The notes under the pieces: model-generated
The model's database searches: none
What the model saw: the letters and a program-made list of their open reading frames with translations, nothing else
What the model was told of the DNA's origin: nothing
Position numbers and translations under genes: made by a program
Shown here: positions 1-17,295 of the stretch, piece after piece
Position numbering within the stretch: position 1 is the stretch's first letter
Layout: every line of letters begins with the position of its first letter
NCBI GenBank assembly: GCA_965116925.1
Contig: OZ220744.1
Coordinates: 4,672,001 to 4,736,000, forward strand
Direction of reading: 5' to 3'
DNA length: 64,000 nucleotides
DNA from: Candidatus Poribacteria bacterium
Lineage (GTDB): Bacteria; Poribacteria; WGA-4E; PCPOR2b

Positions 1-78
1 TCCTAACCTCGCCGATTTGCAGTGTCCAATTAATTCTAAAATCTACCATAGTACGAAAGACCCGATTAGCTTATACAA

Positions 79-1683
79 ATGTCCAAAATCGATACCCTCC
101 TCAAATTTATTGCCTATCAAAAGCAACACCCCCAAGCCAACGACAAAGAAATTGCCCAAGGGATTGGAATGTCAGCGCGACATGTCAGCCGGTGCAGAAA
201 AGAGGTGAACCTTCTCAAACACCAGTTGGCTGAACCAACCTTGCAACCGGGACAGATCCAATTTATATTGTCACTGCTGAACCGACGGGAACCGGATCAG
301 CAGGAGATTGCCCAACAGCTTCAAAAGCAGATGGGGGTCTCCTACACCGGAAGCCTTCGTGCCACGCGCCCCAATGAGGAGGCACCTGTTAGCTGGCTCG
401 AAATCGGCGAGTTGATTCCAGTTGAAATGGGGGCTTTAGACCGCTTGCACCCAGTACTAAGTTTCTGGCTGCAAAACCTGTGCTATGATCCCCTCCTGAT
501 GTCTCACCGAAATGGCGAAATCGAAGGACGGCTCGCAACAGGTTGCGAGGCGGTGCAAGGAAATTCGGAGTGGCATCTGACCTTGAGAAAAGACCTGCGT
601 TGGAACGATGGAAAACCGATTACCCTTGAAGAGGTGATCGCGGCGTTTGCTGCGAGCCGCATCGCGCCGATTATCGCAGAGATGAAACCGGATGGCAAGG
701 ACCAACTTCGAGTTCAACTTACTCAAGAGGACCCGTTCTTTCCACTTCGTCTGCGCAATATCTCCCCACTACCTTCCCACGCGTCCCAACCCTACCGTGT
801 GATCTCAGGTCCCTATCGACTGAAGTATTTCCGTCCGGATGCCATGACCTTTCGCTTTGAGCCGAATCCAGATTACTATCGTGAGGGAAATCCCCACATT
901 GATTGGTTGACCGTAAGGCGCTTCACACTACCCGCCAATGCGGTTAAGGCAGTTGAAAATGGGACACTGGATCTGCTTTTTGTCCCTTTTTATGCGATGC
1001 AGTCCCTCTACCAATTCCCAACGACGGTGCCTTGTCAACAGTGGCCCTTTTTTGAAGATAACTACTACGCCCTATTCCTCAACCGCTATCATGGACCTCT
1101 TTCGGACAAAAAGAACTGTAGGCTGCTTAAAGGAGCCATCGATTATCAGACAATCAACCTCTACCTGCGCATGGGACAGGTTGTTGAGGAAGAAAATCTC
1201 CCATCACTTCCTCACTCCCCTTTTGACATTCGGATTGCCTGCTCACGCGGCAGCTTTCGCTATTTGGCTCATCTCATCGGAAAGTCAGCGGGTTCTTCTG
1301 TGGTGAATCCTATCTCTGTCAAAGGGGAGATGCGGGAGGAGGCGGATGCCTTTTTAACGCAGTTCTTTTTCGGTTTTGGATACAGCAATCTTTCGCAATT
1401 CTTCCACTCCGACGGAGAACACAACTTTTTCGGCTACTCCAGTCCCCAAGTTGATGAGATGCTCTCTCAGCTCAACGGAATGTCGAACCCAAGCGCAAGA
1501 AGTAGGATTGGGCGGCAGGTATTGTCCCTCATACAGGAAGATTTCGCGGCGATCCTGTTGGCACCCTGCTTCCAATATACACTCTCGCCGTTAGAAATCC
1601 AGTTCGACGATAGCCTCACCGATACGATCGATCTGATTCAAAACATGAGCCAACTCACCGTGGAACGTCACCGGACCGGTTAG
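79..1683 (+). CDS. SgrR-like regulator: N-terminal HTH fused to a family-5 solute-binding domain, no signal peptide
   Basis: HTH-like NDKEIAQGIGMSARHVSRCRK; SBP_bac_5 motifs LRKDLRWNDGKPIT, SGPYRL, FEPNPDYY. Confidence 0.75.
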   Translation: MSKIDTLLKFIAYQKQHPQANDKEIAQGIGMSARHVSRCRKEVNLLKHQLAEPTLQPGQIQFILSLLNRREPDQQEIAQQLQKQMGVSYTGSLRATRPNEEAPVSWLEIGELIPVEMGALDRLHPVLSFWLQNLCYDPLLMSHRNGEIEGRLATGCEAVQGNSEWHLTLRKDLRWNDGKPITLEEVIAAFAASRIAPIIAEMKPDGKDQLRVQLTQEDPFFPLRLRNISPLPSHASQPYRVISGPYRLKYFRPDAMTFRFEPNPDYYREGNPHIDWLTVRRFTLPANAVKAVENGTLDLLFVPFYAMQSLYQFPTTVPCQQWPFFEDNYYALFLNRYHGPLSDKKNCRLLKGAIDYQTINLYLRMGQVVEEENLPSLPHSPFDIRIACSRGSFRYLAHLIGKSAGSSVVNPISVKGEMREEADAFLTQFFFGFGYSNLSQFFHSDGEHNFFGYSSPQVDEMLSQLNGMSNPSARSRIGRQVLSLIQEDFAAILLAPCFQYTLSPLEIQFDDSLTDTIDLIQNMSQLTVERHRTG

Positions 1684-1759
1684 TAATAGTTGCTAGCAAC
1701 ATTTACTAATAATCGGGCGAATCGCTTCAATGACTTTTTTAACATTTGCCGTTGAAAGC

Positions 1760-1797
1760 CTGATGCTGACTGACTTTGGAGCATCAGCGTTTTCTTT
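1760..1797 (+). terminator. Possible intrinsic terminator after the regulator
   Basis: CTGATGCT...AGCATCAG stem followed by CGTTTTCTTT. Confidence 0.4.
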
Positions 1798-1811
1798 GGC
1801 ACGGTAATTGC
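1797..1811 (+). promoter_or_regulatory. Sigma-54 (-24/-12) promoter for peptide gene 1
   Basis: TGGCAC-GGTAA-TTGC matches TGGCAC-N5-TTGC; similarity to the paralog leader starts at about 1825, near the expected TSS. Confidence 0.65.
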
Positions 1812-1912
1812 CCCTACTTGAGATTGTCCCGAATCAAAGATTCGGAAGAGTTCTATCTCTAACAGCAGAAGTAGATTGCTTGCTTCTGCAAATCCGAAAG
1901 GAGTTACTCATA

Positions 1913-2110
1913 ATGTTACGGAAAGCATTGATACTCGGAATGGTTTTCATTTTCGCACTGAGCCTATTGGCCGTGTCAATGATTACATGTTTTACCCATG
2001 AAGCAGAGGCACACGACTGGCAGCACCCGGGCGTTCACTGGAATTGCGGGGACGACGGGGTTTTCCACTTTGATCCAGGCTTCGCTGGCTGCACTTGGGA
2101 AACACATTAA
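1913..2110 (+). CDS. Small secreted His/Cys-rich peptide precursor (65 aa), copy 1
   Basis: GAAAGGAG RBS before ATG 1913; signal peptide ending EAEA; paralog at 7468. Confidence 0.85.
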   Translation: MLRKALILGMVFIFALSLLAVSMITCFTHEAEAHDWQHPGVHWNCGDDGVFHFDPGFAGCTWETH

Positions 2111-2122
2111 AATTGGGCCTCT

Positions 2123-2164
2123 TCGTTATGCTAAAAGCCTATGGCGAGGCTTTTAGCATAACGA
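2123..2164. terminator. 18-bp stem-loop after peptide gene 1
   Basis: TCGTTATGCTAAAAGCCT-ATGGCG-AGGCTTTTAGCATAACGA; conserved at 7710-7751. Confidence 0.6.
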
Positions 2165-2622
2165 CCTACCTGCTTTACCATCTGTTTGGTCCTAATTTGC
2201 TTGGTCCTAAGTACCTTGATTTCATCCAATGAATGCGGGGTTCTATACATTTCTCAAGCGTCCACAAATGTAGGCCGGCATTGAGCAGAAGCCGAGTCAA
2301 AAGGGCACCAACAGACTCCAGAAACCTTTTGACCGCAAAAGAGGCGAAATTCGCTCATTTTGCCCCTTTTTGCCTCATTGCTGAAAAGTTGGATCCCTGT
2401 CGTAGCAAGGGTGGAAAAGGTTCGCTGTGGAAATCTTGACCCTTTGAGATTGCTTGATAATGCACCGGCACTGGGTTGATTAGCCTTTGACAGATCAATA
2501 ACACCCTTACTTGCTTGGACAAAAATTAGGTATTTACAAATGACTCTAGATGAACACTCCTCCCCGTAATGAAGCGATTACGTTGCCTTCCTACTCCGAA
2601 GGAGGGCAACATTTGAAAAGAG

Positions 2623-2780
2623 TAGGACTTACACGTTTTAGTAGGGAACAACAATTGTCGTTCCCTACAGACATCTTATAGGGCCTCTGCTGTAGTTGCT
2701 CGTTTCTTAATCCCGATGTATCGGGGCGGCGATAAATCCCCGAACTACAAAACCTTGAGCGTTCAACTGCGTCAGTCCTA
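2623..2780. mobile_element. MITE family A copy carrying REP-like hairpins
   Basis: TAGGACTTACAC...TGCGTCAGTCCTA ends, AAGAG on both flanks, internal GTAGGGAAC...GTTCCCTAC. Confidence 0.65.
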
Positions 2781-2986
2781 AAGAGAATAGAATGAACAAA
2801 AGGTTAGCGAAAAACATCCTCCAAACGATTGGTGGTGTTCTCGCGCTAATAGCTTTTCAGAAAATATTTGCTAATTACGGATTATGAAGAAGGCATGAAG
2901 CGGATATTGGCAAAGCAGATACAGCAAATCCTTGAACGAGAAAAACAACCTAATCTAACCTCTACTGTTGCACAATCCACCTCCCA

Positions 2987-4690
2987 ATGAAACCGTTCTC
3001 CCAGAAAACTTCCTCAATTTTTTTTGCCGTGTGTTTATTCGTTGTTGCAAGTGCATCTCGATTGTTCTCTCTGGGGGCACACTGGACCTCTGATGAGGTT
3101 GGGTGGCTAGACCATAGTACGGTGTTTATGGCCGCAGTCGAGATGGGTGCCTTTTCAGAAACTCTGGTCACTTTTCATCCCGGTGTCATAACGATATGGC
3201 TTGCTGCCCTCCGCACCTTTTTTACCGAACCGCATATAAGTGTTCAAGGTTTAGCGTTAGCCCGGTGGTTCATCGGTGTCGCCCTGTTAAGCGGAATTGG
3301 TGTAGCAGCGATGCTGCTGTATCGATTGCTTGGACGTTGGGTTGCGGTCATCGGTGCGACGTTTCTGTCCTTCTCTCCACTCTTTTTAGCCCAATCCCGT
3401 CGCGTCCACACCGATGCCTTGGCGTCGATGTTTGTCCTGTTGACAGTCCTATCCCTCCTACTCTATTGTGGGGCACCCCAAAAACGCCGTTACCTTATCG
3501 GTTCTGGAATTGCATTCGGTCTAGCCTGCCTTGCCAAAAGCAACTCCCTTATTCTGCTCTTGTGGCTGCCTATCTGCTTCGTCCTGTTTCGGAATCGGGA
3601 GGAGACGTGGCGGCAGTTCTTTCTCCGGGGGCTTGGAGGGTGCCTCTGTTTCCTGAGTTGCACGCTACTCACCGTTTTCGCGCTGTGGCCCCTCTTTTGG
3701 AATCCCGTCTTTCTGATGTTTGGGGTGTGTCTGTTAGGTGTCACGCTGCTTGCGGATCGGGAGTTACAGAAAGGGGCACATGGACGACTCACCCTATATT
3801 TGGTATCGGTGGTGGTGGTAGGTGTGGTATCCGGCTATATGGTCCGAACCGTATGGCGGGTGTTCGATGGCGTTGCGTGGGCGATTACCACACCGCATAA
3901 CGTCGAACACTTCTTCCTCGGACAGGTGTTATATGACCCCGGCTGGCTCTTCTACCCGTTGGTGCTCTGTACAGAGACCACGCCGTTAACCCTTCCCTTA
4001 GTATTCGCTGGGTGTCTCTTTCTGTGGAGGAAACGCCATCAGGAAGGGTATGCGCGACAGTTTCGGATAGCACTCGCGTTGGTGGCGGTTGTCCTACTGT
4101 TCACCCTCTGTCTCTCGCTGACAAGCAAAAAGTTTAGTCGATATCTGCTACCCGCTTTCCCAATTCTGGAGATACTTGCCGCCATCGGCTTTTTTGAGTT
4201 TCTTAAATGGGGTTACTCCTATATCGACTCCCGTTTTGGGACCGAGACAAACTCCCAAAAACTCACCTTTTCTATCGTGACCCTCCTCTGTCTCTTCCTG
4301 ATCCAAATCCTGCCGGTCCTACGGCTTCACCCCTACTACGGCACCTACTACAACCTCTGCTTCAAACTCACTGATATCAGAAAAATTATCACAGTTGGCG
4401 CAGGTGCGGGGTATGATCTTGCGGCAAAATACCTAAATAGGAAGCCAAATGCACAAGCGCTACGGGTTCACACCTTTCCACCAAGTGCCCAATTCTTTTA
4501 TCAATACTTTATTGGACAGTCCTCCTGGTCCGAATCAGGTGAAGTGGCCGTCCCAGATTATGAGGTGGTCCATCTCCGCGAATCCCAAGCGGGATGGGTG
4601 CCGCAAACGGGAACGCTCAACGGACAGCTAGAACACGTGATAACCCTCAACGGCATTGACTATGTTTGGATTTATAGGATACCACGATAG
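2987..4690 (+). CDS. GT39/ArnT-PMT-like membrane glycosyltransferase
   Basis: N-terminal TSDE acidic motif, HPG, many TM segments, RYLLP motif. Confidence 0.75.
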   Translation: MKPFSQKTSSIFFAVCLFVVASASRLFSLGAHWTSDEVGWLDHSTVFMAAVEMGAFSETLVTFHPGVITIWLAALRTFFTEPHISVQGLALARWFIGVALLSGIGVAAMLLYRLLGRWVAVIGATFLSFSPLFLAQSRRVHTDALASMFVLLTVLSLLLYCGAPQKRRYLIGSGIAFGLACLAKSNSLILLLWLPICFVLFRNREETWRQFFLRGLGGCLCFLSCTLLTVFALWPLFWNPVFLMFGVCLLGVTLLADRELQKGAHGRLTLYLVSVVVVGVVSGYMVRTVWRVFDGVAWAITTPHNVEHFFLGQVLYDPGWLFYPLVLCTETTPLTLPLVFAGCLFLWRKRHQEGYARQFRIALALVAVVLLFTLCLSLTSKKFSRYLLPAFPILEILAAIGFFEFLKWGYSYIDSRFGTETNSQKLTFSIVTLLCLFLIQILPVLRLHPYYGTYYNLCFKLTDIRKIITVGAGAGYDLAAKYLNRKPNAQALRVHTFPPSAQFFYQYFIGQSSWSESGEVAVPDYEVVHLRESQAGWVPQTGTLNGQLEHVITLNGIDYVWIYRIPR

Positions 4691-4879
4691 GCTGAATGGG
4701 GAGGTAAAATAGCCTATATAAGTTGATTTCTAACGAGCACAAAATTATTGTCTGAATCGCGGATTAACCAGATGACGCGGATTGCGCGGATTCATGTATG
4801 AATCAAGATTTAAGGATTTACAGGATACTCCTCAGCCCCTGAACTAATGTTAGGAGCGTTGAGGATTCGCTAGGTAAAT

Positions 4880-4907
4880 GTAGGGAACGCAGATCTGCGT
4901 TCCCTAC
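4880..4907. repeat. GTAG-type REP palindrome
   Basis: GTAGGGAACGCAGATCTGCGTTCCCTAC, identical copy at 49327-49354, variant at 2641-2668. Confidence 0.8.
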
Positions 4908-5086
4908 GATGCCCCAAAAGGGTAGGCGTATCAGGAGAAGGATTTCCGCAGCCCAAACCCACAGTGGGAGAGGCTGCCTCGCCTCAATGTATACGCTATC
5001 GGTCTCATTAGCGATTCAGACACGTGCCACATGTCGCCCCGCTGGGGCTAAATGAACCAACGACCCTGTTCCCATTTTCACCCATT

Positions 5087-5164
5087 GGCTCATGTTAAGA
5101 AATCGTGCAACAGGGATCTGGGATGGAAGAAAGAAACCGAGTTTTCAAGAAAAAACTCGGTTTC
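5087..5164. mobile_element. Partial MITE family B
   Basis: GGCTCATGTTAAGAAATCGTGCAA end plus GAAACCGAGTTTT...AAAACTCGGTTTC hairpin. Confidence 0.55.
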
Positions 5165-5190
5165 AAACCTCAAATACCTAAAAACCTACG

Positions 5191-5973
5191 ATGAATCTGA
5201 TTAAACTCCTATCTACCGATTTTTTCACCGGTCAAATCTTGTTCTCAGGGAAGGGGTTGCTCGATATCCTGTGGTTTCTCATCCGCAACCCCCAAGTAAA
5301 GTCTCTAAGACTCGCTGTGCTCATCCTGCAGCTGATCCCCAAATATACAAAGGTGTCGGTGAAGCGACTGATAAATCTCTACCGCTTGACACAAAAGGTA
5401 AACAAACTGAGATTACCCGGAGATATAGTCGAGTGTGGGGTGTGGAATGGCGGATCTGCCGCCATGATGGGGGTAGCGGACCGAGACGATGAAACCTCCG
5501 GCAAAGTCAGGAAGTTATGGCTATTTGATTCGTTTCGTGGGCTGCCACCGCCAAGCAACAGAGACGGAAAACAGGCAAGGGAAACCTATTTTCAAGGGTG
5601 GTGTCACGGTGAGACGGAGAAGGTTAAACAAATTTTCCGGCGATTTCGGCTCTCGTTACAGCATATCAACATTGTTCCCGGGTGGTTTGATGAAACATTG
5701 CAGACAGCAGATCTTCAAACCATCGCTCTCCTGCATATTGACGCCGATTGGTATGCGTCGGTCAAGATAGTTTTAGAAACCTTATATGATAAAGTGGTTG
5801 AAGGCGGGTTTGTTGTCTTGGATGATTATTGGAGATGGCCCGGATGCCGTGAGGCGGTAACAGATTATCTCAAAGAACATCAGATTCAAGGGGTAGTATT
5901 AAAAAAAGCGGACCTACACGGCGTTTATTTTCAAAAACCGCACCGATGCAGAGGAGAAACAGTCGATAATTGA
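5191..5973 (+). CDS. TylF/MycF/NovP-family O-methyltransferase
   Basis: GDIVECGVWNGGS, FDSFRGLP, GWFDETL, LHIDADWY, DDY motifs. Confidence 0.9.
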   Translation: MNLIKLLSTDFFTGQILFSGKGLLDILWFLIRNPQVKSLRLAVLILQLIPKYTKVSVKRLINLYRLTQKVNKLRLPGDIVECGVWNGGSAAMMGVADRDDETSGKVRKLWLFDSFRGLPPPSNRDGKQARETYFQGWCHGETEKVKQIFRRFRLSLQHINIVPGWFDETLQTADLQTIALLHIDADWYASVKIVLETLYDKVVEGGFVVLDDYWRWPGCREAVTDYLKEHQIQGVVLKKADLHGVYFQKPHRCRGETVDN

Positions 5974-5975
5974 TG

Positions 5976-6992
5976 TTATCGGTCGATCTGTTTGAGCCGT
6001 CCCCACATTGTAAACTTTTTGCCAGAGGAAGAGACCGAAAAAGGAGAGTTAAACCATGCAGGATTAATGTCATCATGATGGGGATTATTGGTGAGGTTTT
6101 GAAGATTCTTACCATTGACGTTCATCACGTAGATTTCTGCGCCCCCCTTCCTGTAGGACGCGAAGGCAATCCGTTTACCATCAGGGGACCATGAGGGATC
6201 TCTGTCATTCTGGCGATTTTTTGTGAGTCTTCGTTCATTCTGTCCATCGGCATCCATCACGTAGATTTCAAAGTTTTGAAGTTCCCCCTTTCCATCAGAC
6301 GCGAAGACAATCCGTTTACCGTCCGGTGACCATGAGGGATACCAGTCATTCTTTCGATTTTCAGTAAGTCTTTGTTCATTCCCCCCATCGGCGTCCATTA
6401 CGTAGATTTCATAAGTGATTCCAAATTTGTTTTCAAAGTGCCCATCTCTACGGGCACTGAAGACAATGCGTTCACCGTCGGGGGACCATGAGGGATGCCT
6501 GTCATCATCACCATCGGGATTTTTAGTGAGTCTTTGTTCATTTTGCCTATCGGCATCCATCACGTAGATTTCATAGTTAAAACGCCCATCCCTATCAGAC
6601 GTGAAAGCAATCCGTTTACCGTCGGGGGACCATGAGGGATCCCACTCATGCCCGGGATTTTCAGTAAGTCTCTGCTGATTATCCCCATCGGCGTCCATCA
6701 CGTAGACTTCATAAGTGATTATAAGACCGTGTCTAAAGCCATCTCTATTAGAAAGAAAAACAATGCGCTTGCCGTCGGGAGACCATGAGGGGTCCCTATC
6801 ATCGGAAGGATTGTTAGAGAGGTTTTGCTGATTCTCCCCATCAACATCCATCACGTAAATTTCCCAGTTCCCATCCCTCTTAGACGAGAAGGCAATTTGT
6901 GCCTGTGAGTCAACGCATACCATCAGCGGCGTTAGACCCAACACTACAACGATAGCTAAAACCAAATGTCCGAGATTGTCCCTTCGGTGCAT
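5976..6992 (-). CDS. Secreted TolB-like PD40 six-bladed beta-propeller, paralog 1
   Basis: Signal peptide, five PSWSPDG repeats plus closing PAWF blade, tail GKKFTMWGRLKQ. Confidence 0.9.
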   Translation of the reverse strand: MHRRDNLGHLVLAIVVVLGLTPLMVCVDSQAQIAFSSKRDGNWEIYVMDVDGENQQNLSNNPSDDRDPSWSPDGKRIVFLSNRDGFRHGLIITYEVYVMDADGDNQQRLTENPGHEWDPSWSPDGKRIAFTSDRDGRFNYEIYVMDADRQNEQRLTKNPDGDDDRHPSWSPDGERIVFSARRDGHFENKFGITYEIYVMDADGGNEQRLTENRKNDWYPSWSPDGKRIVFASDGKGELQNFEIYVMDADGQNERRLTKNRQNDRDPSWSPDGKRIAFASYRKGGAEIYVMNVNGKNLQNLTNNPHHDDINPAWFNSPFSVSSSGKKFTMWGRLKQIDR

Positions 6993-7221
6993 CTGTTATT
7001 CCTCCTCTGTTTTCAAATCGTATTTTTTATCCTTTGGGGTTGATAGAGATAAGCTCGTGTTGGCAATTCTTTCCAATTAAAGGGTGGCGTGTGCATAAAT
7101 ATATCTTTTATTACAAACTATTTGAGTAATTTATGCAAAACTGTACCAAAATAAGGCATCAAACAAACAAAATCACTAACATATTCCACCGCGAAACATT
7201 ATGCACGCCCCTCAATTATGA

Positions 7222-7337
7222 AGTATATCAACCAATAACCTTAAAATGCCAGCTAAATTTAAGGGGACTGGACATATTATGTCATAACTCTCCCAAAAGT
7301 GACTTGAATTGTTATCGGTTGGCTGGTATTTTATAAT
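7222..7337. promoter_or_regulatory. Divergent promoter region between propeller 1 and peptide 2
   Basis: Minus-strand extended -10 TGATATACT; plus-strand TTGTTA-17-TATAAT (7309-7337); GACATA-T-TATGTC palindrome (7271-7283); homologous to 10551-10640. Confidence 0.6.
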
Positions 7338-7467
7338 TGTAACGGGGCAGATAAATTCGTGAACTGTAAAAGTTGTTCATGCCTGTCCCGAAATTGGAAG
7401 ATTTAGAAGTTCTATCTCTAGCAGCAGAAACCGATTACTTCTGCAAATCTGAAAGGAGTTAACCATA

Positions 7468-7683
7468 ATGTTAAGAAAAGCATTGACCCTCGGAACGGTT
7501 TTCATTTTAGCACTAAGCCTGTTGGCTGTGTCAATGATTACATGTTTTACCTATGACTCAGAGGCAGACCCTGGGCACGCAGGCGATCACTGGGATTGCG
7601 GGGACGCCGGGATTTTCCACCATGATCCAGGCCCGCCCTTGGACTGCACATTTATCCCCGGTGGCCATGTTACTGGAGAATAG
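7468..7683 (+). CDS. Small secreted His/Cys-rich peptide precursor (71 aa), copy 2
   Basis: GAAAGGAG RBS; signal peptide near-identical to copy 1; shared HxGxHWxCGDxGxFHxDPG..CT core. Confidence 0.85.
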   Translation: MLRKALTLGTVFILALSLLAVSMITCFTYDSEADPGHAGDHWDCGDAGIFHHDPGPPLDCTFIPGGHVTGE

Positions 7684-7709
7684 ACTTCAGTGGTGCAAAT
7701 CAGGCACCT

Positions 7710-7751
7710 TCGTTATGCTAAAAGTCTTGTCATAGGCTTTTAGCATAACGA
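7710..7751. terminator. 18-bp stem-loop after peptide gene 2
   Basis: Same stem as 2123-2164 with one G-U pair and a different loop. Confidence 0.6.
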
Positions 7752-8168
7752 CCTACCTGCTTCGCTGGCTGTTTGGTTCTAAGTGGAGTATACGCCAGCC
7801 TATTTACAAATGACCTTAGGTGAGTGTTCCTCCTCTGTTCTCAAATCGGTTTTCTATTCTTTAGGGTTGATACAGGTCAACTTGTTTAGGCAACCCCTTT
7901 CCAATTAAGTCCCGCCTCTGTTGTCTCGTTTAAGAACGGACGGAATAGTTGATTCCTCCGATTTATGCCGATTTATCAAGCAGCCTTGACAAGTCCCGAT
8001 TCTCGGGATGCTCGGAACGGACCTGGAACGGCTTGGTAATGTCTCGATTAGATCGGAACAAATCAAGTCGGAAGTGGCAATTCAGATCATTATCACATGG
8101 AGTCTTCCGACCCTTCTTTGACGTTTATGACCCAACCTCAACAAACATTGTTTTCTCAATAATGGCAA

Positions 8169-9194
8169 TTATTGGTCGACCTGTTTGAGCTGTCCCCATA
8201 TTGTAAACTGTTTGTCGACAGAAGAAACCGACAACGGAGAGTTAAACCATGCAGCATTAATGTCATCATGGCGATTATTGGTGAGGTTCTGCTGATTTCC
8301 ACCATCAGCGTCCATCACGTAGATTTCACGGTTTCCATCTCTATCAGACGAGAAGGCAATCCGTTCACCGTCAGGGGACCAGGAGGGAAACCTGTCATGA
8401 ACGCGATTTTCAGTGAGTTTTTGTTGATTCCCCCCATCAGCGTCCATCACGTAGATTTCAATGTTTACAAGGTCCCCCTTCCTATCAGACGCGAAGGTAA
8501 TTCGCTTACCATCGGGGGACCATGAGGGACCCCAGTCATTCTTTCGATTTTCAGTGAGTCTTTGTTGATTTCCACCATCGGCGTTCATCACGTAGATTTC
8601 ATAAGTGACTGCAAACTTGGTTTCAAAGTGCCCCTCCCTACGGGCACCGAAGACAATGCGTTGACCATCAGGGGACCATGAGGGATGCCTATCATCAAAA
8701 AAGGGACTGTCAGTGAGTCTTTGTTGATTCTCCCCATCGGCGTCCATCACGTAGATTTCAAGAGATTGAGGGATCTTCCCATTAAACGCGACTCTACTAG
8801 ACGCGAAGGCAATCCGTTTACCGTCAGGGGACCATGAGGGATATCTGTCATCATTGCGATCCTTAGTGAGGTTTTGAGGGTTGCCCCCATCGGCGTCCAT
8901 CACGTAGATTTCAGAAGTGAGTCTACCATCTATAGCGTGCCCATCCCTATTAGAGAAAAAGGCAATGCGCTTGCCATCCGGAGACCAAGAGGGGTCCCTA
9001 TCATTAGAGGGATTGTTAGTGAGGTTTTGTTGATTCCCCCCATCGGCATCCATCACGTAAATTTCCCAGTTCCCATCCCTATCAGACGAGAAGGCAATCC
9101 GTGCTTGTGCGTCAACGCATACCATTAGCAGCGTCAGGCCCAAAACTATAACACCAGCTAAAATGAGGTGTGCAAGATTCTTCCTTCGGTGCAT
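8169..9194 (-). CDS. Secreted TolB-like PD40 beta-propeller, paralog 2
   Basis: Signal peptide, five PSWSPDG repeats, tail DKQFTIWGQLKQ. Confidence 0.9.
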   Translation of the reverse strand: MHRRKNLAHLILAGVIVLGLTLLMVCVDAQARIAFSSDRDGNWEIYVMDADGGNQQNLTNNPSNDRDPSWSPDGKRIAFFSNRDGHAIDGRLTSEIYVMDADGGNPQNLTKDRNDDRYPSWSPDGKRIAFASSRVAFNGKIPQSLEIYVMDADGENQQRLTDSPFFDDRHPSWSPDGQRIVFGARREGHFETKFAVTYEIYVMNADGGNQQRLTENRKNDWGPSWSPDGKRITFASDRKGDLVNIEIYVMDADGGNQQKLTENRVHDRFPSWSPDGERIAFSSDRDGNREIYVMDADGGNQQNLTNNRHDDINAAWFNSPLSVSSVDKQFTIWGQLKQVDQ

Positions 9195-9235
9195 CTGTTA
9201 TTCCTCCTCTGTTTTCAAATCGCTTTATTATTCTT

Positions 9236-9368
9236 TAGACTTACGCAGTTGAACAGTCAAAGCCCTGTAGCTCGGCGATTCATCGCCGTTGGACACCGTT
9301 ACCAACCCTGGTCTCGGAACGGACGCCCGATGAATCGGGCAACTACAATCTGGAGTGCGTAAGTCCTG
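9236..9368. mobile_element. MITE family A inserted in the leader of propeller 2
   Basis: TAGACTTACGCA...TGCGTAAGTCCTG with 6-bp TSD ATTCTT; paralogous leaders (about 7030, 7860) are empty sites. Confidence 0.85.
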
Positions 9369-9533
9369 ATTCTTTGGAATTGATAGAGGTCAGATTGGGT
9401 TGGCAACCCCTTTACGATTAAAAGGGCAATTCGTATTATTATCGTCCGAACTTATCGCCCCTTCGTTGGCGTTTATGAGCTACTCCCGTATGTTTCCGCG
9501 TCTCAGCAAACGCTGTTTTCTCAACAATAGCAG

Positions 9534-10496
9534 TTATCGGTCAATCTGTTTGAGCCATCCCCACATTGTAAATTTTTTGCCAGCGGGAGAGATCGAGAAA
9601 GAAGAGTTAAACCATGCAGGCTCTTCTTCATCCTCGGGATGATTGGTGAGGTTCCGAGGATTACTCCCATCGGCAGCCATGACGTAGACGTCCGGATTCA
9701 AATCCCTCGTCCTATTCGACACGAAGGCAATTCGCTTACCGTCGGGTGACCATGAGGGAGACCGATCAGCATCGGGATGATTGGTGAGGTTTTGCTTATT
9801 ATCCCCATTGGTGTCCATCACATAGATTTCCCAGTTTCTCAGCCTCCCGGAAGTAAAAGCAATGCGCTTACCGTTAGGAGACCATGAGGGGCTAGAGTCA
9901 GAATCTTCATGATGGGTGAGTCTACGCTGATTCCCCCCATTGGCGTCCATCACGTAGATGTCAATGTTCCCACCGCTACTGGAAACAAAGACAATGCGTT
10001 TACCGTCGGGTGACCATGAGGGATCCTCGTCAAAACGGTTATTATTGGTGAGATTTTTAGGGTTGCCCCCATCGGTGTCCATCACGTAGATTTCACTGCG
10101 CCCCTTCCTATCAGACACGAAGACAATCTGTTTACCGTCAGGCGACCATGAGGGGTTCCATTCATCAAAGTCATTATTAGAAAGGTTTCGCTGATTGCCC
10201 CCATCGGCATCCATCACATAGATTTGCCGGTTCCAATCCCTATCATTCCTATCAGCAGTAAAGGCAATCCGTTTACCGTCAGGCGACCATGAGGGATGTT
10301 TATCATCACCAGGATTGTTAGTGAGATTTCGCGGATTATTCCCATCGGCGTCCATCACGTAGATTTCCCAGTGCCAATCCCTATCAGACATGAAGGCAAT
10401 CCGTGCCTGTGCACCAACGGCTACCATCAGCAGCGTTAGAACCAAGACGACAACGCTAGCTGAAACCAAATATGCGAGAGTGTCCCTTCGGTGCAT
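9534..10496 (-). CDS. Secreted TolB-like PD40 beta-propeller, paralog 3
   Basis: Signal peptide, five PSWSP(D/N)G repeats, tail GKKFTMWGWLKQ. Confidence 0.9.
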   Translation of the reverse strand: MHRRDTLAYLVSASVVVLVLTLLMVAVGAQARIAFMSDRDWHWEIYVMDADGNNPRNLTNNPGDDKHPSWSPDGKRIAFTADRNDRDWNRQIYVMDADGGNQRNLSNNDFDEWNPSWSPDGKQIVFVSDRKGRSEIYVMDTDGGNPKNLTNNNRFDEDPSWSPDGKRIVFVSSSGGNIDIYVMDANGGNQRRLTHHEDSDSSPSWSPNGKRIAFTSGRLRNWEIYVMDTNGDNKQNLTNHPDADRSPSWSPDGKRIAFVSNRTRDLNPDVYVMAADGSNPRNLTNHPEDEEEPAWFNSSFSISPAGKKFTMWGWLKQIDR

Positions 10497-10540
10497 CTGT
10501 TATCCCTCCTCTGTTCTCAAATCGGTTTATTATTTTTTGG

Positions 10541-10640
10541 GGTTGATATAAAGTATATCAACCAATAATCTCAAAATACCAGCCAACTTTAAGGAGTCTG
10601 GACAGAATACGTCTACACTCTCTGGAAAATGGTTGAGATT
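10541..10640 (-). promoter_or_regulatory. Promoter/operator region of propeller 3
   Basis: GGTTGATATA-AAG-TATATCAACC inverted repeat overlapping extended -10 TGATATACT; homologous to 7222-7310. Confidence 0.55.
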
Positions 10641-10672
10641 ACATGCAAGAATAATTTATATTGTTATATTGT

Positions 10673-10857
10673 TAGGAGTTACGCACTTCAGTTTGTAGTA
10701 GCGCAATTCATTGCACGTTACCACGGGCGATAAATCGCCCGACTACGAACCTTTATCCCTATTGTAGTTGCCCGATTCATCGGGCGTTGGAAACGGTATC
10801 CTACGGCGATTCATCGCCGAGCTACAGGGCTTTGATTGTTCAACTGTGTAAGTCCTA
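10673..10857. mobile_element. MITE family A
   Basis: TAGGAGTTACGCA...TGTGTAAGTCCTA with 6-bp TSD TATTGT; several GTAG hairpins inside. Confidence 0.85.
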
Positions 10858-10871
10858 TATTGTATAAAATA

Positions 10872-11095
10872 ATCTAAGTTGCTAGTTGTTGTTCCGGTGT
10901 TTGTCTGAACCGTGAAACGAAGCGTAATAGGTAATGCGAGGATCGCAGATTAGGCAATCTGCGCCACGATTAGTAACATTTGCCCGACGACTGGGATTCT
11001 ATAACATAAACCAAGTCGTTAGAATCAGACAGAAAGCGAGTTTTGAAGAAAAAACTCGGTTTATAGTGCTTGGTCTATCAACTAGCAACTTGCGT
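10872..11095. mobile_element. MITE-like element, family C
   Basis: AAGTTGCTAGTTG...CAACTAGCAACTT inverted ends, TAAAATA on both flanks. Confidence 0.6.
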
Positions 11096-11151
11096 TAAAA
11101 TAACGTGATTCTCAACTTTTATAGAAAAATGAATTACATAGGAGGACAACC

Positions 11152-11961
11152 ATGTCAAATATGTCAAAACACGTGACAACCTGTATTCTTGTTGCAACTT
11201 TTTTTACTGCCGTGATTACACCGGTTTTTGGACATGAGCAGCAGTGGATATTGCCCAACTTTTTCTATACGGACCATGAATCTCCTTGGTTGGGTATGGA
11301 GCACACAGCGGGAGATCAACGGTTTGTCTCTGGACATGGGTTAGGAAGCCCTTTATGGATTATCCATCCGGAAGGATGGCGTATGGGACGACCATCATCT
11401 ATTTTTGTTGGTCAGACGAGGACTGTCGGGGAGATAGAACTGCGAGAGCCGGGCACCTATCGAATCGAAACAAACCATCCGGTCCAATATGTGACAGAAT
11501 TTGAGGTAGATGGCAAAAAGAGGTGGGCTGGCAAATCGAAAGACCAACTACCCGGCAAAAAGATTCTCCAGTCGGCACATCGATGGTCTCAGACCACCAC
11601 TTTTGTGACGGTGAAGAAATATACGAAACGTGTTTTGGAACCTGCCGGTGCATTTTTAGAAATCGTGCCAGTAACCCATCCAAACAAGATTTTTGTGGGA
11701 AAGCCATTTGCAGTTCGCGTTCTATCAAGAGGTCAACTGGTTCCGGGCCAAGAGGTTCAAGCTTACTCGGAGATGGACAGCGGACATGACACACCCCTAG
11801 TAACAGTTACCAACGCCGATGGTGAATGTGAATTAACCTTTCCATCTTCCGGTATGTATCTACTAACCGCCCGACTCCGTCAGGATGCCAAAGATTCTTC
11901 CCGCGCCAATATTGATGTATTTAATGTATCAATGCTGGTAGAGGTTAGGAAGAAAAGGTAA
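11152..11961 (+). CDS. DUF4198-like secreted protein (family often linked to Ni/Co uptake)
   Basis: Signal peptide followed by H-x-x-x-W-I-L-P; LEIVPVTHP and TNADG motifs. Confidence 0.7.
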   Translation: MSNMSKHVTTCILVATFFTAVITPVFGHEQQWILPNFFYTDHESPWLGMEHTAGDQRFVSGHGLGSPLWIIHPEGWRMGRPSSIFVGQTRTVGEIELREPGTYRIETNHPVQYVTEFEVDGKKRWAGKSKDQLPGKKILQSAHRWSQTTTFVTVKKYTKRVLEPAGAFLEIVPVTHPNKIFVGKPFAVRVLSRGQLVPGQEVQAYSEMDSGHDTPLVTVTNADGECELTFPSSGMYLLTARLRQDAKDSSRANIDVFNVSMLVEVRKKR

Positions 11962-12076
11962 CAGTATTGATGTGTCTGCTGTCGGTCTGGTAAGTTGACA
12001 ATTCCTTGCTTTGGATTTTTGAGCTTCGTTGCTGTGGTTATTTTGGCTACGATTAAATATCGACAGAACCCGTCTA

Positions 12077-14319: not shown

Positions 14320-14368
14320 TCGCGCTTAAGTTCTGTTAATATTTGAAAATTGAGCCAATATTGATGCA

Positions 14369-14624
14369 TCTGAAGCAGTATTTTGGGCAACCACAAGGGT
14401 TGCCCCTACATTGGGTCAATTCCTGTAGGGGTTGGGTTTCCCAACCCTTTGGGCGAGGAAACCTCGCCCCTACGACAGGGAACTTATAGGCGAATTTCTG
14501 AAGCAGTATTTTGGGCAACCACAAGGGTTGCCCCTACATTGGGTCAATTCCTGTAGGGGTTGGGTTTCCCAACCCTTTGGGCGAGGAAACCTCGCCCCTA
14601 CGACAGGGAACTTATAGGCGAATT
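14369..14624. repeat. Exact 128-bp tandem duplication of a REP-hairpin cluster
   Basis: 14369-14496 equals 14497-14624. Confidence 0.9.
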
Positions 14625-14688: not shown

Positions 14689-15951
14689 TTAGCGGGACCA
14701 GACCGACTGATAAAGTCCCTCTGTCCCTTCCTCTGCTGGATAAGCGATCGCCGCAGATGGGTATACCGCTACCTTCGGTTTCTGGTCTCGATATATCTGC
14801 TTCAACATATCCAAAATCTCATCCCACGAGTCCATTAATTTGGCTCTGGGTTGCGCTTCCAAGACCTCCATCGGACCCACAGCGTCGGAGAAGAGGATAT
14901 AATCCCAGTCCTCAGATCTGACCAACGGCTTCCGTTCTTCGCGTTCTTGGCCTTCAGCCTCACGGCGAAGTCTCGACCCAATGATGCCCGCTCGGTGATA
15001 ACACACACCCTCATCCCCGGAGGAGACCAAGATGCGCGTCGCTTCCGGCGATGCATGCCGCATGGGCCACCCACCGATCTGTCCATAGCTGAGATCATGA
15101 TCACGGGGATAGCCGGTAGTGACTACGATGTCGGCATCCTTCATCGGCGTAATCGCATAGGCGACCCTTGAGGTCTCGACAGCAGCGCGATGAGCGTCAA
15201 CCAAATCCCCGACGAAAAGGGCGGTAATCTCCCGTCTGTCGTTAAGGGTAGTTATCACCGTTGTATTCACCCCCAGCATTCGGGCAGCTTCCTCGGAGTT
15301 GAGCCGAAATTCATTCTCGACGTTCCCCGCATTTCCACCGCTTTCCATCGTTCCGTGGGCGGTGCTGATGGTTTTATGGTTCGACACGCCGGGGATGACA
15401 ATCTTCCCACCGCCGCTAAACGCCGCGGTCCCATGGGGCCAAGCACCCCCGACGCCGATCTTTACATCGCAGTCTACCACCCATTGGTTGCAGTGGAGCG
15501 GGACCCCACGCGAGGTCTCGCCTATGTAGATGTAGGCGTCGTCCAACTCGTTCTGCTTGACACGAAAACGGCGTACCGTGTCCTCGCCCAACTTCTTCAC
15601 CAAGTCAGCATGCTTCATGCTTCTGTGACAACCGAAGCCCATGAAGAAAATGATATTTTCTTCAGAAATACCGCCCTCCTGAAGCTCCTCTAGAATAAAG
15701 GGGATCACCTCTGAAGAGGGGGTTGGACGGGTTAAATCGTCGCAAATGATGACAGCACTGTTTTGGCCCTGGGCTATCTCCGCAATGCGTGGTGACCCAA
15801 TCGGTTCATGGAACGCCTGTCGGAGTTGGTCTTGGGTCAGTACCGGATGCTTTTCATACGCAATGACGTTGATGTCCCAATCGTCGGGAAACGTCAAGTC
15901 GACTTCTCTATCACCATACCAAGCACCTGTTAAAACTTGAACAGATTGCAT
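14689..15951 (-). CDS. LarA-family nickel-pincer-dependent racemase/epimerase, paralog 1
   Basis: DDLTRPTP, GCHR, PHG, FSGGGK...PG motifs. Confidence 0.8.
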   Translation of the reverse strand: MQSVQVLTGAWYGDREVDLTFPDDWDINVIAYEKHPVLTQDQLRQAFHEPIGSPRIAEIAQGQNSAVIICDDLTRPTPSSEVIPFILEELQEGGISEENIIFFMGFGCHRSMKHADLVKKLGEDTVRRFRVKQNELDDAYIYIGETSRGVPLHCNQWVVDCDVKIGVGGAWPHGTAAFSGGGKIVIPGVSNHKTISTAHGTMESGGNAGNVENEFRLNSEEAARMLGVNTTVITTLNDRREITALFVGDLVDAHRAAVETSRVAYAITPMKDADIVVTTGYPRDHDLSYGQIGGWPMRHASPEATRILVSSGDEGVCYHRAGIIGSRLRREAEGQEREERKPLVRSEDWDYILFSDAVGPMEVLEAQPRAKLMDSWDEILDMLKQIYRDQKPKVAVYPSAAIAYPAEEGTEGLYQSVWSR

Positions 15952-15980: not shown

Positions 15981-17204
15981 CTAATCCCGTGGATAAGCGA
16001 TCGCTGACGAGCGATATATCGCTACCTTCGGCTTCTGGTCACGATATTTCTGCTTCAGAAAGTCGAGAATTTCATCCCACGATTCCATCAATTTGGCTTT
16101 GGGGTGAACTTCCAATACCTCCATCGGACCCACGGCATCAGAGAAGAGGATATAATCCCAGTCCTCCGATCTAACCAGCGGCTTCCGTTCTTCGCGTTCA
16201 CGGTTCTCCGCTTCACGAAGTTGTCTGCCTCGGAGGAAGCCTGCCCGATGATAGCCAACCCCCTCGGTGCCGGTGTTAATCAGAATACGCGTTGCCTCCG
16301 GTTGAGAATGTCTCATGGGCCAACCGCCCTGACCGCCGTATGGAAGGTCATGGTCACGGGGATAGCCGGTGGTAATTACAATATCGGCGTCGGACATTAC
16401 TTGGACCGCGTAAGCCTCTCTCGCCTCCTTAACGGCGGTGCGGTGTGCTTCGACCAAATCGCCCACAAAAAGCCCAGTAATCTCGCGTTTATAGTCCAAG
16501 ATGGTGAGCACCGTTGTATTCAATCCAGCCATTCGAGCGGCTTCTTCGGAGTTAAGGCGAAATTCATTTTCAACATTTCCAGCCCTGCCCCCGCCCTTCA
16601 ACGTGCCGTGTGCGGTGCTGATAGTTTTGTAACTTGCTATACCGGGGATAGCGAGTTTTCCACCGCCGCTGAAACCTGCCGTACCGTGTGGCCACGTTCC
16701 ACCGATACCAATTTTGAGCTCGCAGTCCATCACCCACTGGTTGATATGCAGCGGAACTCCCCGCGACGTGTCCCCTAAATAGACGAATGGATCATCCAAC
16801 TCATTCTGTTTGACTCGGATACGATTTACAGTATCCTCACCGAGTTTCTTTGTGATGTCATCGTGCCGCATCTGTCTGTGGCAGCCATGCCCTATGAAAA
16901 TTAAGATATCCTCTTCAGCGATGCCCCCTTCACCCAATTCATCTAAGATGAAGGGCATGACCTCTGAGGTCGGAGTGGGCCGCGTGAGATCATCGGCAAT
17001 GAGGACAGCACTTTTCTTTCCCTGCGCGAGTTCTGCGATTCTCGGTGACCCAATCGGTTGATGGAACGCCTGCCGCAGCTGATCTTGTGTCAGCACCGGG
17101 CGTTCTTCAAAAGCGATAAGGTTAAGGTCCCAACCGTCAGGAAACGTTAAGTCCACCTCTCGGTCGCCATACCAAGCGGCTGTCAAAACCTGAACTGATT
17201 GCAT
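15981..17204 (-). CDS. LarA-family racemase/epimerase, paralog 2
   Basis: Same motifs; ATG 17204 preferred from RBS spacing and alignment to paralog 1. Confidence 0.8.
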   Translation of the reverse strand: MQSVQVLTAAWYGDREVDLTFPDGWDLNLIAFEERPVLTQDQLRQAFHQPIGSPRIAELAQGKKSAVLIADDLTRPTPTSEVMPFILDELGEGGIAEEDILIFIGHGCHRQMRHDDITKKLGEDTVNRIRVKQNELDDPFVYLGDTSRGVPLHINQWVMDCELKIGIGGTWPHGTAGFSGGGKLAIPGIASYKTISTAHGTLKGGGRAGNVENEFRLNSEEAARMAGLNTTVLTILDYKREITGLFVGDLVEAHRTAVKEAREAYAVQVMSDADIVITTGYPRDHDLPYGGQGGWPMRHSQPEATRILINTGTEGVGYHRAGFLRGRQLREAENREREERKPLVRSEDWDYILFSDAVGPMEVLEVHPKAKLMESWDEILDFLKQKYRDQKPKVAIYRSSAIAYPRD

Positions 17205-17295
17205 TATCAATCCCCCTTGCGGAATTAGTGAATCTATAGATGAGGCAACCGCGAGAGTTACCTCGTTGTTAAGACGTTAAGTCGAGAAGATGGTA

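Follow-up and report, generated by a model that had tools for sequence, protein, structure and literature searches.

Which neighbour does a rapidly diverging secreted peptide depend on? The question is posed by the left end of the window, a stretch of 64,000 nt of Candidatus Poribacteria contig OZ220744.1 (positions 4,672,001-4,736,000; coordinates below refer to the window unless stated), taken from a host genome assembly that is 99% complete. Two genes for small secreted peptides stand here among genes for a protein joining a putative helix-turn-helix to an SBP_bac_5 domain (family-5 solute-binding protein; HTH-SBP5), a PMT_2-type glycosyltransferase of the GT-C fold, a TylF-family methyltransferase and three minus-strand PD40 propellers, all of which were confirmed as genes (Table 1). 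An earlier note on this DNA had taken the propellers for the peptides' partners, duplicated together with them beside the regulator. Comparison across the phylum points to the glycosyltransferase: in this Poribacteria operon a hypervariable His/Cys-rich peptide gene is followed by GT-C glycosyltransferase and methyltransferase genes, and the exported disulfide peptides may be O-glycosylated by a three-component GT-C system. A probability of about 45% is assigned to this reading, which builds on an established gene order, peptide family, rate contrast, GT-C fold, set of linkage counts and pair of promoter classes.

The peptide is a real gene. Its profile defines a family of 268 clusters from Poribacteria that carry no annotation, and has 42 genomic matches in 14 of the 176 genomes of the phylum (13 of this genus and one of a sister genus); no Pfam or NCBIfam family matches either window peptide. 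Sequence statistics refer to the 120 clusters listed, 112 of which were parsed into signal and core, and neighbourhood counts to 38 genomic matches read within 32 stretches of about 20 kb; the other four of the 42, with altered starts or remnants, were excluded. The 112 parsed peptides have a 33-residue signal ending in A-x-A and a core of 29-48 residues with 2-4 Cys, the precursors in the window being 65-71 aa long. Cores contain 12% His and 6.5% Trp, and begin with His in 54 of the 112. The proportions of nonsynonymous and synonymous change (pN/pS), taken over 37 genes, are 0.064/0.267 in the signal and 0.061/0.243 in the GT-C gene, which is thus under purifying selection. In the core, at 35% identity, pN reaches 0.457 and pS 0.70, the latter partly alignment noise. 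The core is hypervariable and diverges faster than adjacent silent sites, its amino-acid change (pN 0.46) exceeding the silent change of the flanking codons (0.24-0.27). One pair of peptides combines near-identical cores with more distant signals, which indicates core exchange as well as selection. Adenine-only mutagenesis of the diversity-generating-retroelement type was considered and rejected, as five close pairs show other substitutions and in-frame indels. An AlphaFold2 model of peptide 1 shows a signal helix and short strands flanking both Cys (pLDDT 87), consistent with a disulfide-closed loop. A Foldseek search of the model against the PDB gave no match at E 0.001; the best ESM Atlas matches are leads only, peptide 1 reaching 0.87 with an unnamed cluster of 66 aa and the membrane-anchored partner described below 0.77. 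The RNA data consist of assembled contigs only, about 90% alike and containing 7-11% of words, and cannot rank expression.

The usual order in the genus is peptide, GT-C, TylF and then facing propellers. Downstream of the 38 peptides, a GT-C gene occurs within 1.5 kb in 25 cases and within 6 kb in 29, and TylF usually follows it. Peptide and GT-C occur in the same genomes of the genus (12 and 11 of 19 relatives, the discrepancy being one assembly of 260 contigs). The GT39 and TylF genes, which the earlier note had regarded as interrupting a peptide-propeller unit, are therefore normal unit content, and GT-C is the most conserved partner.

The association reaches well beyond the genus. GT-C matches were found in 64 of the 176 genomes, and 60 of the loci listed were read, strongest first; 57 of these lie outside the genus, some of them ending at contig ends. 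Upstream of the GT-C gene, these 57 loci carry a small secreted protein with at least two Cys in 38 cases, a membrane-anchored protein in 51 and a sigma54 activator in 10; downstream, GT2 occurs in 38. A propeller occurs in only two, and HTH-SBP5 and radical SAM genes in none. The small Cys-rich proteins at these loci are unrelated to the window peptides. Followers tested included GT4 and methyltransferase genes, and four of nine (one of the four from the host genome) passed the LPG_synthase_TM cut-off. Additional genes at some loci encode extracytoplasmic function sigma factors, a protein with a C39 peptidase domain, or a WD40 protein accompanied by a MacB-type permease. Of the earlier proposal of an undescribed co-regulated set, the secreted peptide and the co-regulation survive, with the GT-C set as the deeper partner in place of the propellers.

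Unlinked members of the peptide families fit a general rule of peptide plus GT-C: six are followed by another GT-C enzyme (STT3 confirmed in one, PMT_2 in one, and four by likeness). As a separate observation, five loci carry a secreted peptide family with 10-17 Cys in which an STT3-like transferase replaces the GT39-type enzyme, mostly with a WD40-like protein and a permease-sized membrane protein between peptide and STT3-like gene. N-x-S/T sequons were rejected as a separator of STT3- from GT39-linked peptides (3/5 vs 3/6). At a third GT-C locus of the host genome (genome C1:3569052-3579821), genes for a sigma54 activator and membrane proteins are joined by one for a Cys-rich precursor of 146 aa with Ser/Thr at its end and one for a protein containing a C39 peptidase domain; GT-C, a flippase-like gene, GT2 and a GHMP kinase also belong to it.

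What the enzyme might do is suggested by its fold and its companions. The model of the 567-aa GT-C protein (pLDDT 90) is nearest to ArnT (Z 28.2, rmsd 7.6, 418 residues aligned), followed by ALG12, STT3 and Pmt1-Pmt2 (Z 23.9, rmsd 4.0, 393 aligned for the last); ArnT is also its sole PDB sequence match (E 3e-4). A conserved Asp36-Glu37 pair is present, with Asp36 invariant and Glu37 nearly so. GT2 (PF00535, 6 kb out) and LPG_synthase_TM genes lie 4.6-6.5 kb left of the window, with a GHMP-kinase gene also just left of it, and the same three adjoin the third peptide locus of the genome. The best matches of the GT2 protein are the ArnC and PgfS models, below cut-off. The LPG_synthase_TM family is a putative flippase family. 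Two features of three-component glycosylation were accordingly found, a GT-C fold transferase and a linked GT2 polyprenyl-phosphate glycosyltransferase. Under the proposed mechanism, the peptide would be exported by Sec and closed by a disulfide. The GT2 enzyme and the LPG_synthase_TM flippase-like protein, whose genes directly follow GT-C in other families and lie left of the window here, would load and flip a polyprenyl-phosphate sugar, which TylF may methylate. The GT-C enzyme would transfer this lipid-carried sugar, outside the cytoplasm, to Ser/Thr at the C-terminal end of the peptide. The product most likely acts extracellularly, in recognition or conflict as the diversifying core suggests, with His-based metal binding probable.

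The candidate acceptor site emerges from the C-termini. When 44 GT-C-linked small proteins were grouped into 26 families with one representative each, at least two Ser/Thr in the last four residues were found in 17 of the 26, against 2 of 46 control open reading frames (ORFs; Fisher p 3e-8), 7% of the host genome's long ORFs and 9.6% expected from composition. In the window peptide family, 118 of 120 members have Ser/Thr within the last four residues and 72% have it at position -2, compared with 6.6% Ser/Thr before the last Cys; many families outside the genus do end in Ser/Thr. Within three families offering 15 linked and 17 unlinked loci, at least three Ser/Thr occur in 6/15 vs 1/17 (p 0.03; rank test p 0.014).

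Several points weigh against peptide glycosylation. No glycopeptide has been observed, and acceptor and function are predictions. The tail controls come from one genome and include probable false ORFs, and kin are not independent. The within-family contrast fades at the threshold of at least two Ser/Thr (10/15 linked vs 7/17 unlinked, p 0.18), and its linked rows are the same rows that prompted the tail idea. None of the 120 window-family peptides has Ser/Thr as its last residue, unlike the acceptors of TfpO/TfpM. Two Ser/Thr-tailed peptides have no such GT-C gene within about 10 kb and none was matched in their genomes, and one linked His-rich family (three copies) lacks Ser/Thr in its last four residues. 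Nine of the 38 peptides, copy 2 included, have no downstream GT-C gene. The membrane-anchored partner is commoner upstream of GT-C than the peptide (51 vs 38 of 57), with a linker of 12-24% Ser/Thr. Finally, the GT-C fold does not name the acceptor, because its closest relative, ArnT, is a lipid A enzyme. It is on account of the counter-examples in both directions and of the alternative GT-C followers that peptide glycosylation is held at the level given above, with another acceptor as the leading rival.

According to that rival, which is unlikely but still deserves serious weight, the GT-C set modifies some other envelope target (membrane-anchored linkers, other secreted proteins or lipid A), while the peptide, transcribed along with it but left unmodified, forms a disulfide hairpin whose His residues bind Cu, Ni or Zn in a metal or envelope-stress response. 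The His content of the cores and their frequent initial His suit such a role, as do the ArnT-like fold and the partners preceding 51 of 57 GT-C genes, whose Ser/Thr-rich linkers recall streptococcal Pgf targets as described in PMC12041528. A DUF4198 gene shares the regulatory palindrome described below; nickel-binding proteins head the PDB list for the regulator family, with peptide binders close behind; and signal-peptide metallophores exist, namely the bufferins as reported in PMC11626156. Against this, the partner is deleted in most copies of the genus (retained behind only 6 of 38 peptides) while GT-C is kept, the Ser/Thr tail also occurs in many GT-C-linked peptide families that are not rich in His, and the core pN, set against silent change in the flanks, is more than relaxed metal buffering requires. 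Bufferins are likewise small Cys-containing peptides with a Sec signal, a dedicated sigma factor and possible metal binding (PMC11626156). Unlike in bufferin systems, the host genome gave no match to the MNIO enzyme (PF05114), for which a control genome was positive.

Peptide glycosylation finds its closest parallel in the TfpO/TfpM pairs, which, as described in PMC9829042, glycosylate a C-terminal Ser/Thr of the protein encoded just upstream. An acceptor gene directly ahead of a membrane glycosyltransferase and Ser/Thr at the C-terminal end after a Cys are shared features. The acceptor there is a pilin, whereas the present one is a small Sec-type peptide of 65-71 aa with an A-x-A signal, and no Pfam or NCBIfam match identifies the peptides as type IV pilins; the enzyme here is PMT_2/ArnT-like with its own GT2 and flippase-like genes, and the hydroxyl residue lies at -2 to -4. 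A GT-A enzyme together with a GT-C enzyme places sugars on Ser/Thr outside the cell in the streptococcal Pgf system (PMC12041528). GtrABC, Arn (PMC11127046) and Pgf (PMC12041528) likewise combine a GT2 polyprenyl-phosphate synthase, a putative flippase and a GT-C enzyme, but their known acceptors are O-antigen, lipid A or Ser/Thr-rich regions of large proteins, whereas a hypervariable disulfide peptide leads the operon here. No description of the peptide/GT-C/propeller/regulator combination was found in a literature search confined to result listings and the opening lines of abstracts; the individual parts are of known kinds, and the combination appears to be undescribed. Among ribosomal natural products, the enzymes known to glycosylate peptides work in the cytoplasm and use nucleotide sugars.

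The two peptide genes do not share a promoter. Upstream regions of class A (15 of 38 peptides, peptide 1 among them) combine an inverted repeat with a sigma54-type box nearer the gene, 107-122 bp ahead of its start. The host genome encodes RpoN, as well as a sigma54 response regulator about 3 kb to the left of the window. With a -24/-12 box, RpoN and a linked enhancer-binding protein all present, a sigma54-dependent operon is predicted. The inverted repeat of the type at 1680..1709 also precedes other sigma54-box genes of the genome, and the class A promoter other small secreted proteins with membrane-anchored followers. In class B regions (22 of 38), a palindrome of 29 bp precedes the start by about 191 bp. 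The upstream sequences of the two copies differ accordingly: 1680-1824 and 7239-7383 agree at only 78/157 positions, with a sigma54-type box in copy 1 and a palindrome in copy 2. As a side observation, small secreted proteins stand behind the same sigma54-type promoter or palindrome at genome C1:2832020, 2220455, 2773123, 2776021, 269468 and 4237380; membrane-anchored proteins follow at all six, and the four tested had no Pfam match.

The palindrome connects the locus to a wider set of genes. A matrix built from 13 sites of other genomes finds 13 sites in the host genome, all intergenic, and none at the same score in a shuffled genome; they lie by propeller arrays, peptides, DUF4198, flippase/GT2 genes, the radical SAM/activator gap and three HTH-SBP5 genes. 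The pair 7222-7310/10551-10640, presented earlier as a conserved propeller promoter, is this palindrome between divergent genes, found ahead of the other gene types as well. With a covariance model it is detected in 17 of 41 genomes, exactly the 17 that carry HTH-SBP5, four of them outside the palindrome training set and all 17 kin. The palindrome is likely the operator of the HTH-SBP5 protein, linking propellers, peptides and glycosylation genes. A terminator was rejected, the T-run preceding the stem and the A-run following it, and the window copy folding no better than shuffles. Its variation is symmetric (9 of 13 pairs change on both sides), which may reflect palindrome correction and is no proof of structure, and in several palindromes the left arm is of another type than the right. 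Transcription of the peptide operons would start from a sigma54 promoter or from a palindrome-controlled promoter probably bound by HTH-SBP5. The hairpin behind the peptide gene, which probably stabilises the peptide part of the mRNA, is found by a strict pattern after 33 of 38 peptide genes, and two others are followed by a compensated variant. The two window hairpins are real (z -5.9 and -8.3, none of 200 shuffles equal), and an Rfam scan of positions 1-12000 gave no family at gathering score.

The regulator itself is clear in its SBP domain and weak in its HTH (Pfam matches in 4 of 10 members of the family, with best E values of 5e-4 to 8e-3), and scores 14.1 bits on the NCBIfam SgrR model against a cut-off of 476. 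SgrR-type proteins regulate their own genes, and SgrR/DsvR resemble it in joining an HTH, putative here, and SBP_bac_5 in one cytoplasmic protein, with a candidate box by its own gene and a small gene nearby (10.64898/2026.04.01.715812, as outlined there); they differ in that the putative regulon here comprises secreted and envelope genes, with nothing nearby at Rfam gathering score. The regulator is not consistently linked to the peptide. It directly precedes 17 of 38 (within 1.5 kb), and two of its six host-genome copies precede one. Separately, the HTH-SBP5 gene is tandemly duplicated in three relatives.

The pairing of peptide and facing propeller as ligand and receptor or toxin and immunity, duplicated together, is an improbable alternative. 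Of the 38 peptides, 31 have a propeller no more than 6 kb downstream, and in 29 cases it faces the peptide; the palindrome is common to both, and on a propeller tree (from a quick search rather than a careful one) the peptide-linked label changes 15 times against a shuffle mean of 23.8, with none of 500 shuffles as low. Yet the linked propellers form neither one clade nor a dedicated partner clade and are scattered over the tree, with at least eight label changes forced by well-supported branches. Most close propellers of the host genome lie away from peptides: 101 ORFs match, 51 of them full-length close paralogues in 12 arrays, and only five of the 51 (in 2 of 12 arrays) are near peptides while 46 are not. 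On the propeller side, this is the outcome that the earlier note had itself named as speaking against its model. Four relatives have regulator, palindrome and 5-44 propeller matches without a peptide or GT-C match, and the sister-genus peptide has no facing propeller. The palindrome lies within 2.5 kb of only 4 of the 12 arrays. A complex prediction for propeller 2 with peptide 2 (score 0.13, mark 0.32) spoke neither for nor against binding. The link is real in the genus but not specific, and the propellers look like co-regulated members of a large family, surface proteins that share the palindrome and would ride along in the genus, rather than the peptides' dedicated partners. WD40-type repeats are abundant in Poribacteria, as reported in PMC3909097. 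The TolB-like PD40 arrays of Poribacteria are of the same family; the window propellers fall below TolB cut-offs, lack the length of the TolB N-terminal domain and have the 51 close paralogues. In addition, the propellers share a C-terminal tag (6960-6992 in the propeller 1 gene) whose motif is matched by 89 genome ORFs of 150 or more aa, and genes with such a tag precede HTH-SBP5 in another order. At two loci a YceI-domain protein whose N-terminus carries an Asn-Pro-Cys repeat is encoded downstream of the propeller, next to a Crp-type regulator and GT2.

Equally improbable is a peptide made by ribosomes and modified after translation (RiPP) or signal, cross-linked by a radical SAM/SPASM enzyme and sensed after re-import by HTH-SBP5. 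A peptide-maturase-like gene of this kind lies just left of the window (genome C1:4670395-4671744), directly upstream of HTH-SBP5; this pairing is kept in another Poribacteria order, and family-5 solute-binding proteins bind peptides. The enzyme, however, reaches 231.6 bits on TIGR04280 against a cut-off of 400, and only 7 of 38 peptides have it upstream at 6 kb or less; it is broken in two peptide-adjacent copies, was not found in three peptide-bearing genomes and is present in two peptide-less ones. A second radical SAM-regulator pair (genome C1:3588501-3589859) has no peptide, and the regulator occurs in four peptide-less genomes. The radical SAM gene pairs with the regulator, not with the peptide; geopeptide-like radical SAM RiPPs differ in that here the maturase is below the family cut-off and the precursor not consistently adjacent. 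Least credible is a by-product of shuffling, in which insertion sequences and recombination at the repeated palindrome unite unrelated surface genes: many loci do show transposase-like ORFs (judged by their sequences) and moved contexts, and several palindromes have mismatched arms, but families whose peptides are unrelated repeat the same order of peptide, partner, GT-C, GT2 and flippase.

A bolder form of peptide glycosylation, more tentative than its core, may be proposed for the phylum. Dozens of unrelated Sec-exported disulfide peptides with hypervariable cores would be served by one periplasmic GT-C pathway reading a C-terminal Ser/Thr tail, giving phylum-specific ribosomal glycopeptides comparable to eukaryote-style secreted glycopeptides, used in host or competitor recognition; in this genus a new operator of 29 bp would have brought the pathway into an SgrR-like regulon. 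If GT-C does glycosylate exported disulfide peptides via a short portable tail, this would be a new glycopeptide route, possibly yielding a glycoengineering tag, as TfpM's short sequon became; and peptides that prove glycosylated would form a new class of glycopeptide. The proposal names a specific product that can be tested for in an uncultured sponge symbiont of high abundance, Poribacteria being known mainly from sponges, and the palindrome offers the first candidate regulon for their expanded propeller arrays.

Table 1. Features of the peptide locus, in window positions
Feature	Position	Strand	Evidence or remark
SgrR-like regulator, HTH (putative) and family-5 solute-binding domain	79..1683	+	PF00496 E 9e-22; without signal peptide
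AT-rich inverted repeat, candidate activator site	1680..1709	.	about 90 bp ahead of sigma54-type box
sigma54-type -24/-12 box, peptide 1	1797..1811	+	sequence
5' leader and ribosome-binding site, common to both peptide genes	1825..1912	+	70/90 identical to 7384-7467
Peptide 1: 33-aa signal (A-x-A end), 32-aa His/Cys/Trp core, two Cys, Thr at -2	1913..2110	+	
18-bp hairpin, no U-tract	2123..2164	+	likely mRNA-stabilising stem-loop
Fused remnant of two deleted genes	2792..2990	+	start of membrane-anchored partner and end of small Cys-motif membrane protein
GT-C fold membrane glycosyltransferase (PMT_2/ArnT-like; GT39-type)	2987..4690	+	PF13231 E 2e-11; model pLDDT 90
TylF-family O-methyltransferase	5191..5973	+	PF05711 E 7e-50
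Secreted PD40 beta-propeller 1, expanded family	5976..6992	-	
29-bp palindromic element, centre 7277, between propeller 1 and peptide 2	7263..7291	.	likely HTH-SBP5-family operator
TATAAT, -10-like hexamer, peptide 2 promoter class	7332..7337	+	kept about 55 bp past palindrome in class B upstream regions
Peptide 2: same signal, different 38-aa core, Thr at -3	7468..7683	+	
Second 18-bp hairpin	7710..7751	+	
Junction: start of post-peptide spacer joined to copied propeller 5' region	7801..7910	.	26/33 to 2531-2563, 68/87 to 6997-7082
Secreted PD40 beta-propeller 2	8169..9194	-	
Secreted PD40 beta-propeller 3	9534..10496	-	
Second palindromic element, centre 10607, between propeller 3 and DUF4198	10593..10621	.	
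Secreted DUF4198 protein, recurring in these loci, palindrome ahead	11152..11961	+	PF10670 E 2e-29

The layout also suggests how the second copy was shortened. The non-coding homologies claimed between the copies hold, with 70/90 (1825-1912/7384-7467), 65/76 (2121-2195/7708-7782), 26/33 (2531-2563/7801-7833) and 70/91 (7222-7310/10551-10640) identical columns. Genes, hairpins and homologies are real, but the unit had been drawn wrongly: copy 2 is a shortened form, and a third copy with the same gene order lies elsewhere in the host genome. Downstream of peptide 2 the DNA runs into a propeller 5' region (7825-7910 vs 6997-7082, 68/87), a junction at which GT-C, TylF and one propeller gene were probably lost. 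In copy 1, the remnant at 2792..2990 has 17/20 identity to the N-terminus of the membrane-anchored partner and up to 29/36 to the C-terminus of the small protein. REP-like inverted repeats occur at 2641-2800, 4879-5164, 9238-9367 and 10674-11062, and a non-coding repeat unit of about 120 bp, seen as repeated ORF text, at 14336-14620. Tandem Lar_N (lactate racemase-like) genes at 14689-15951 and 15981-17210 lie 3 kb from DUF4198, where a nickel link is possible.

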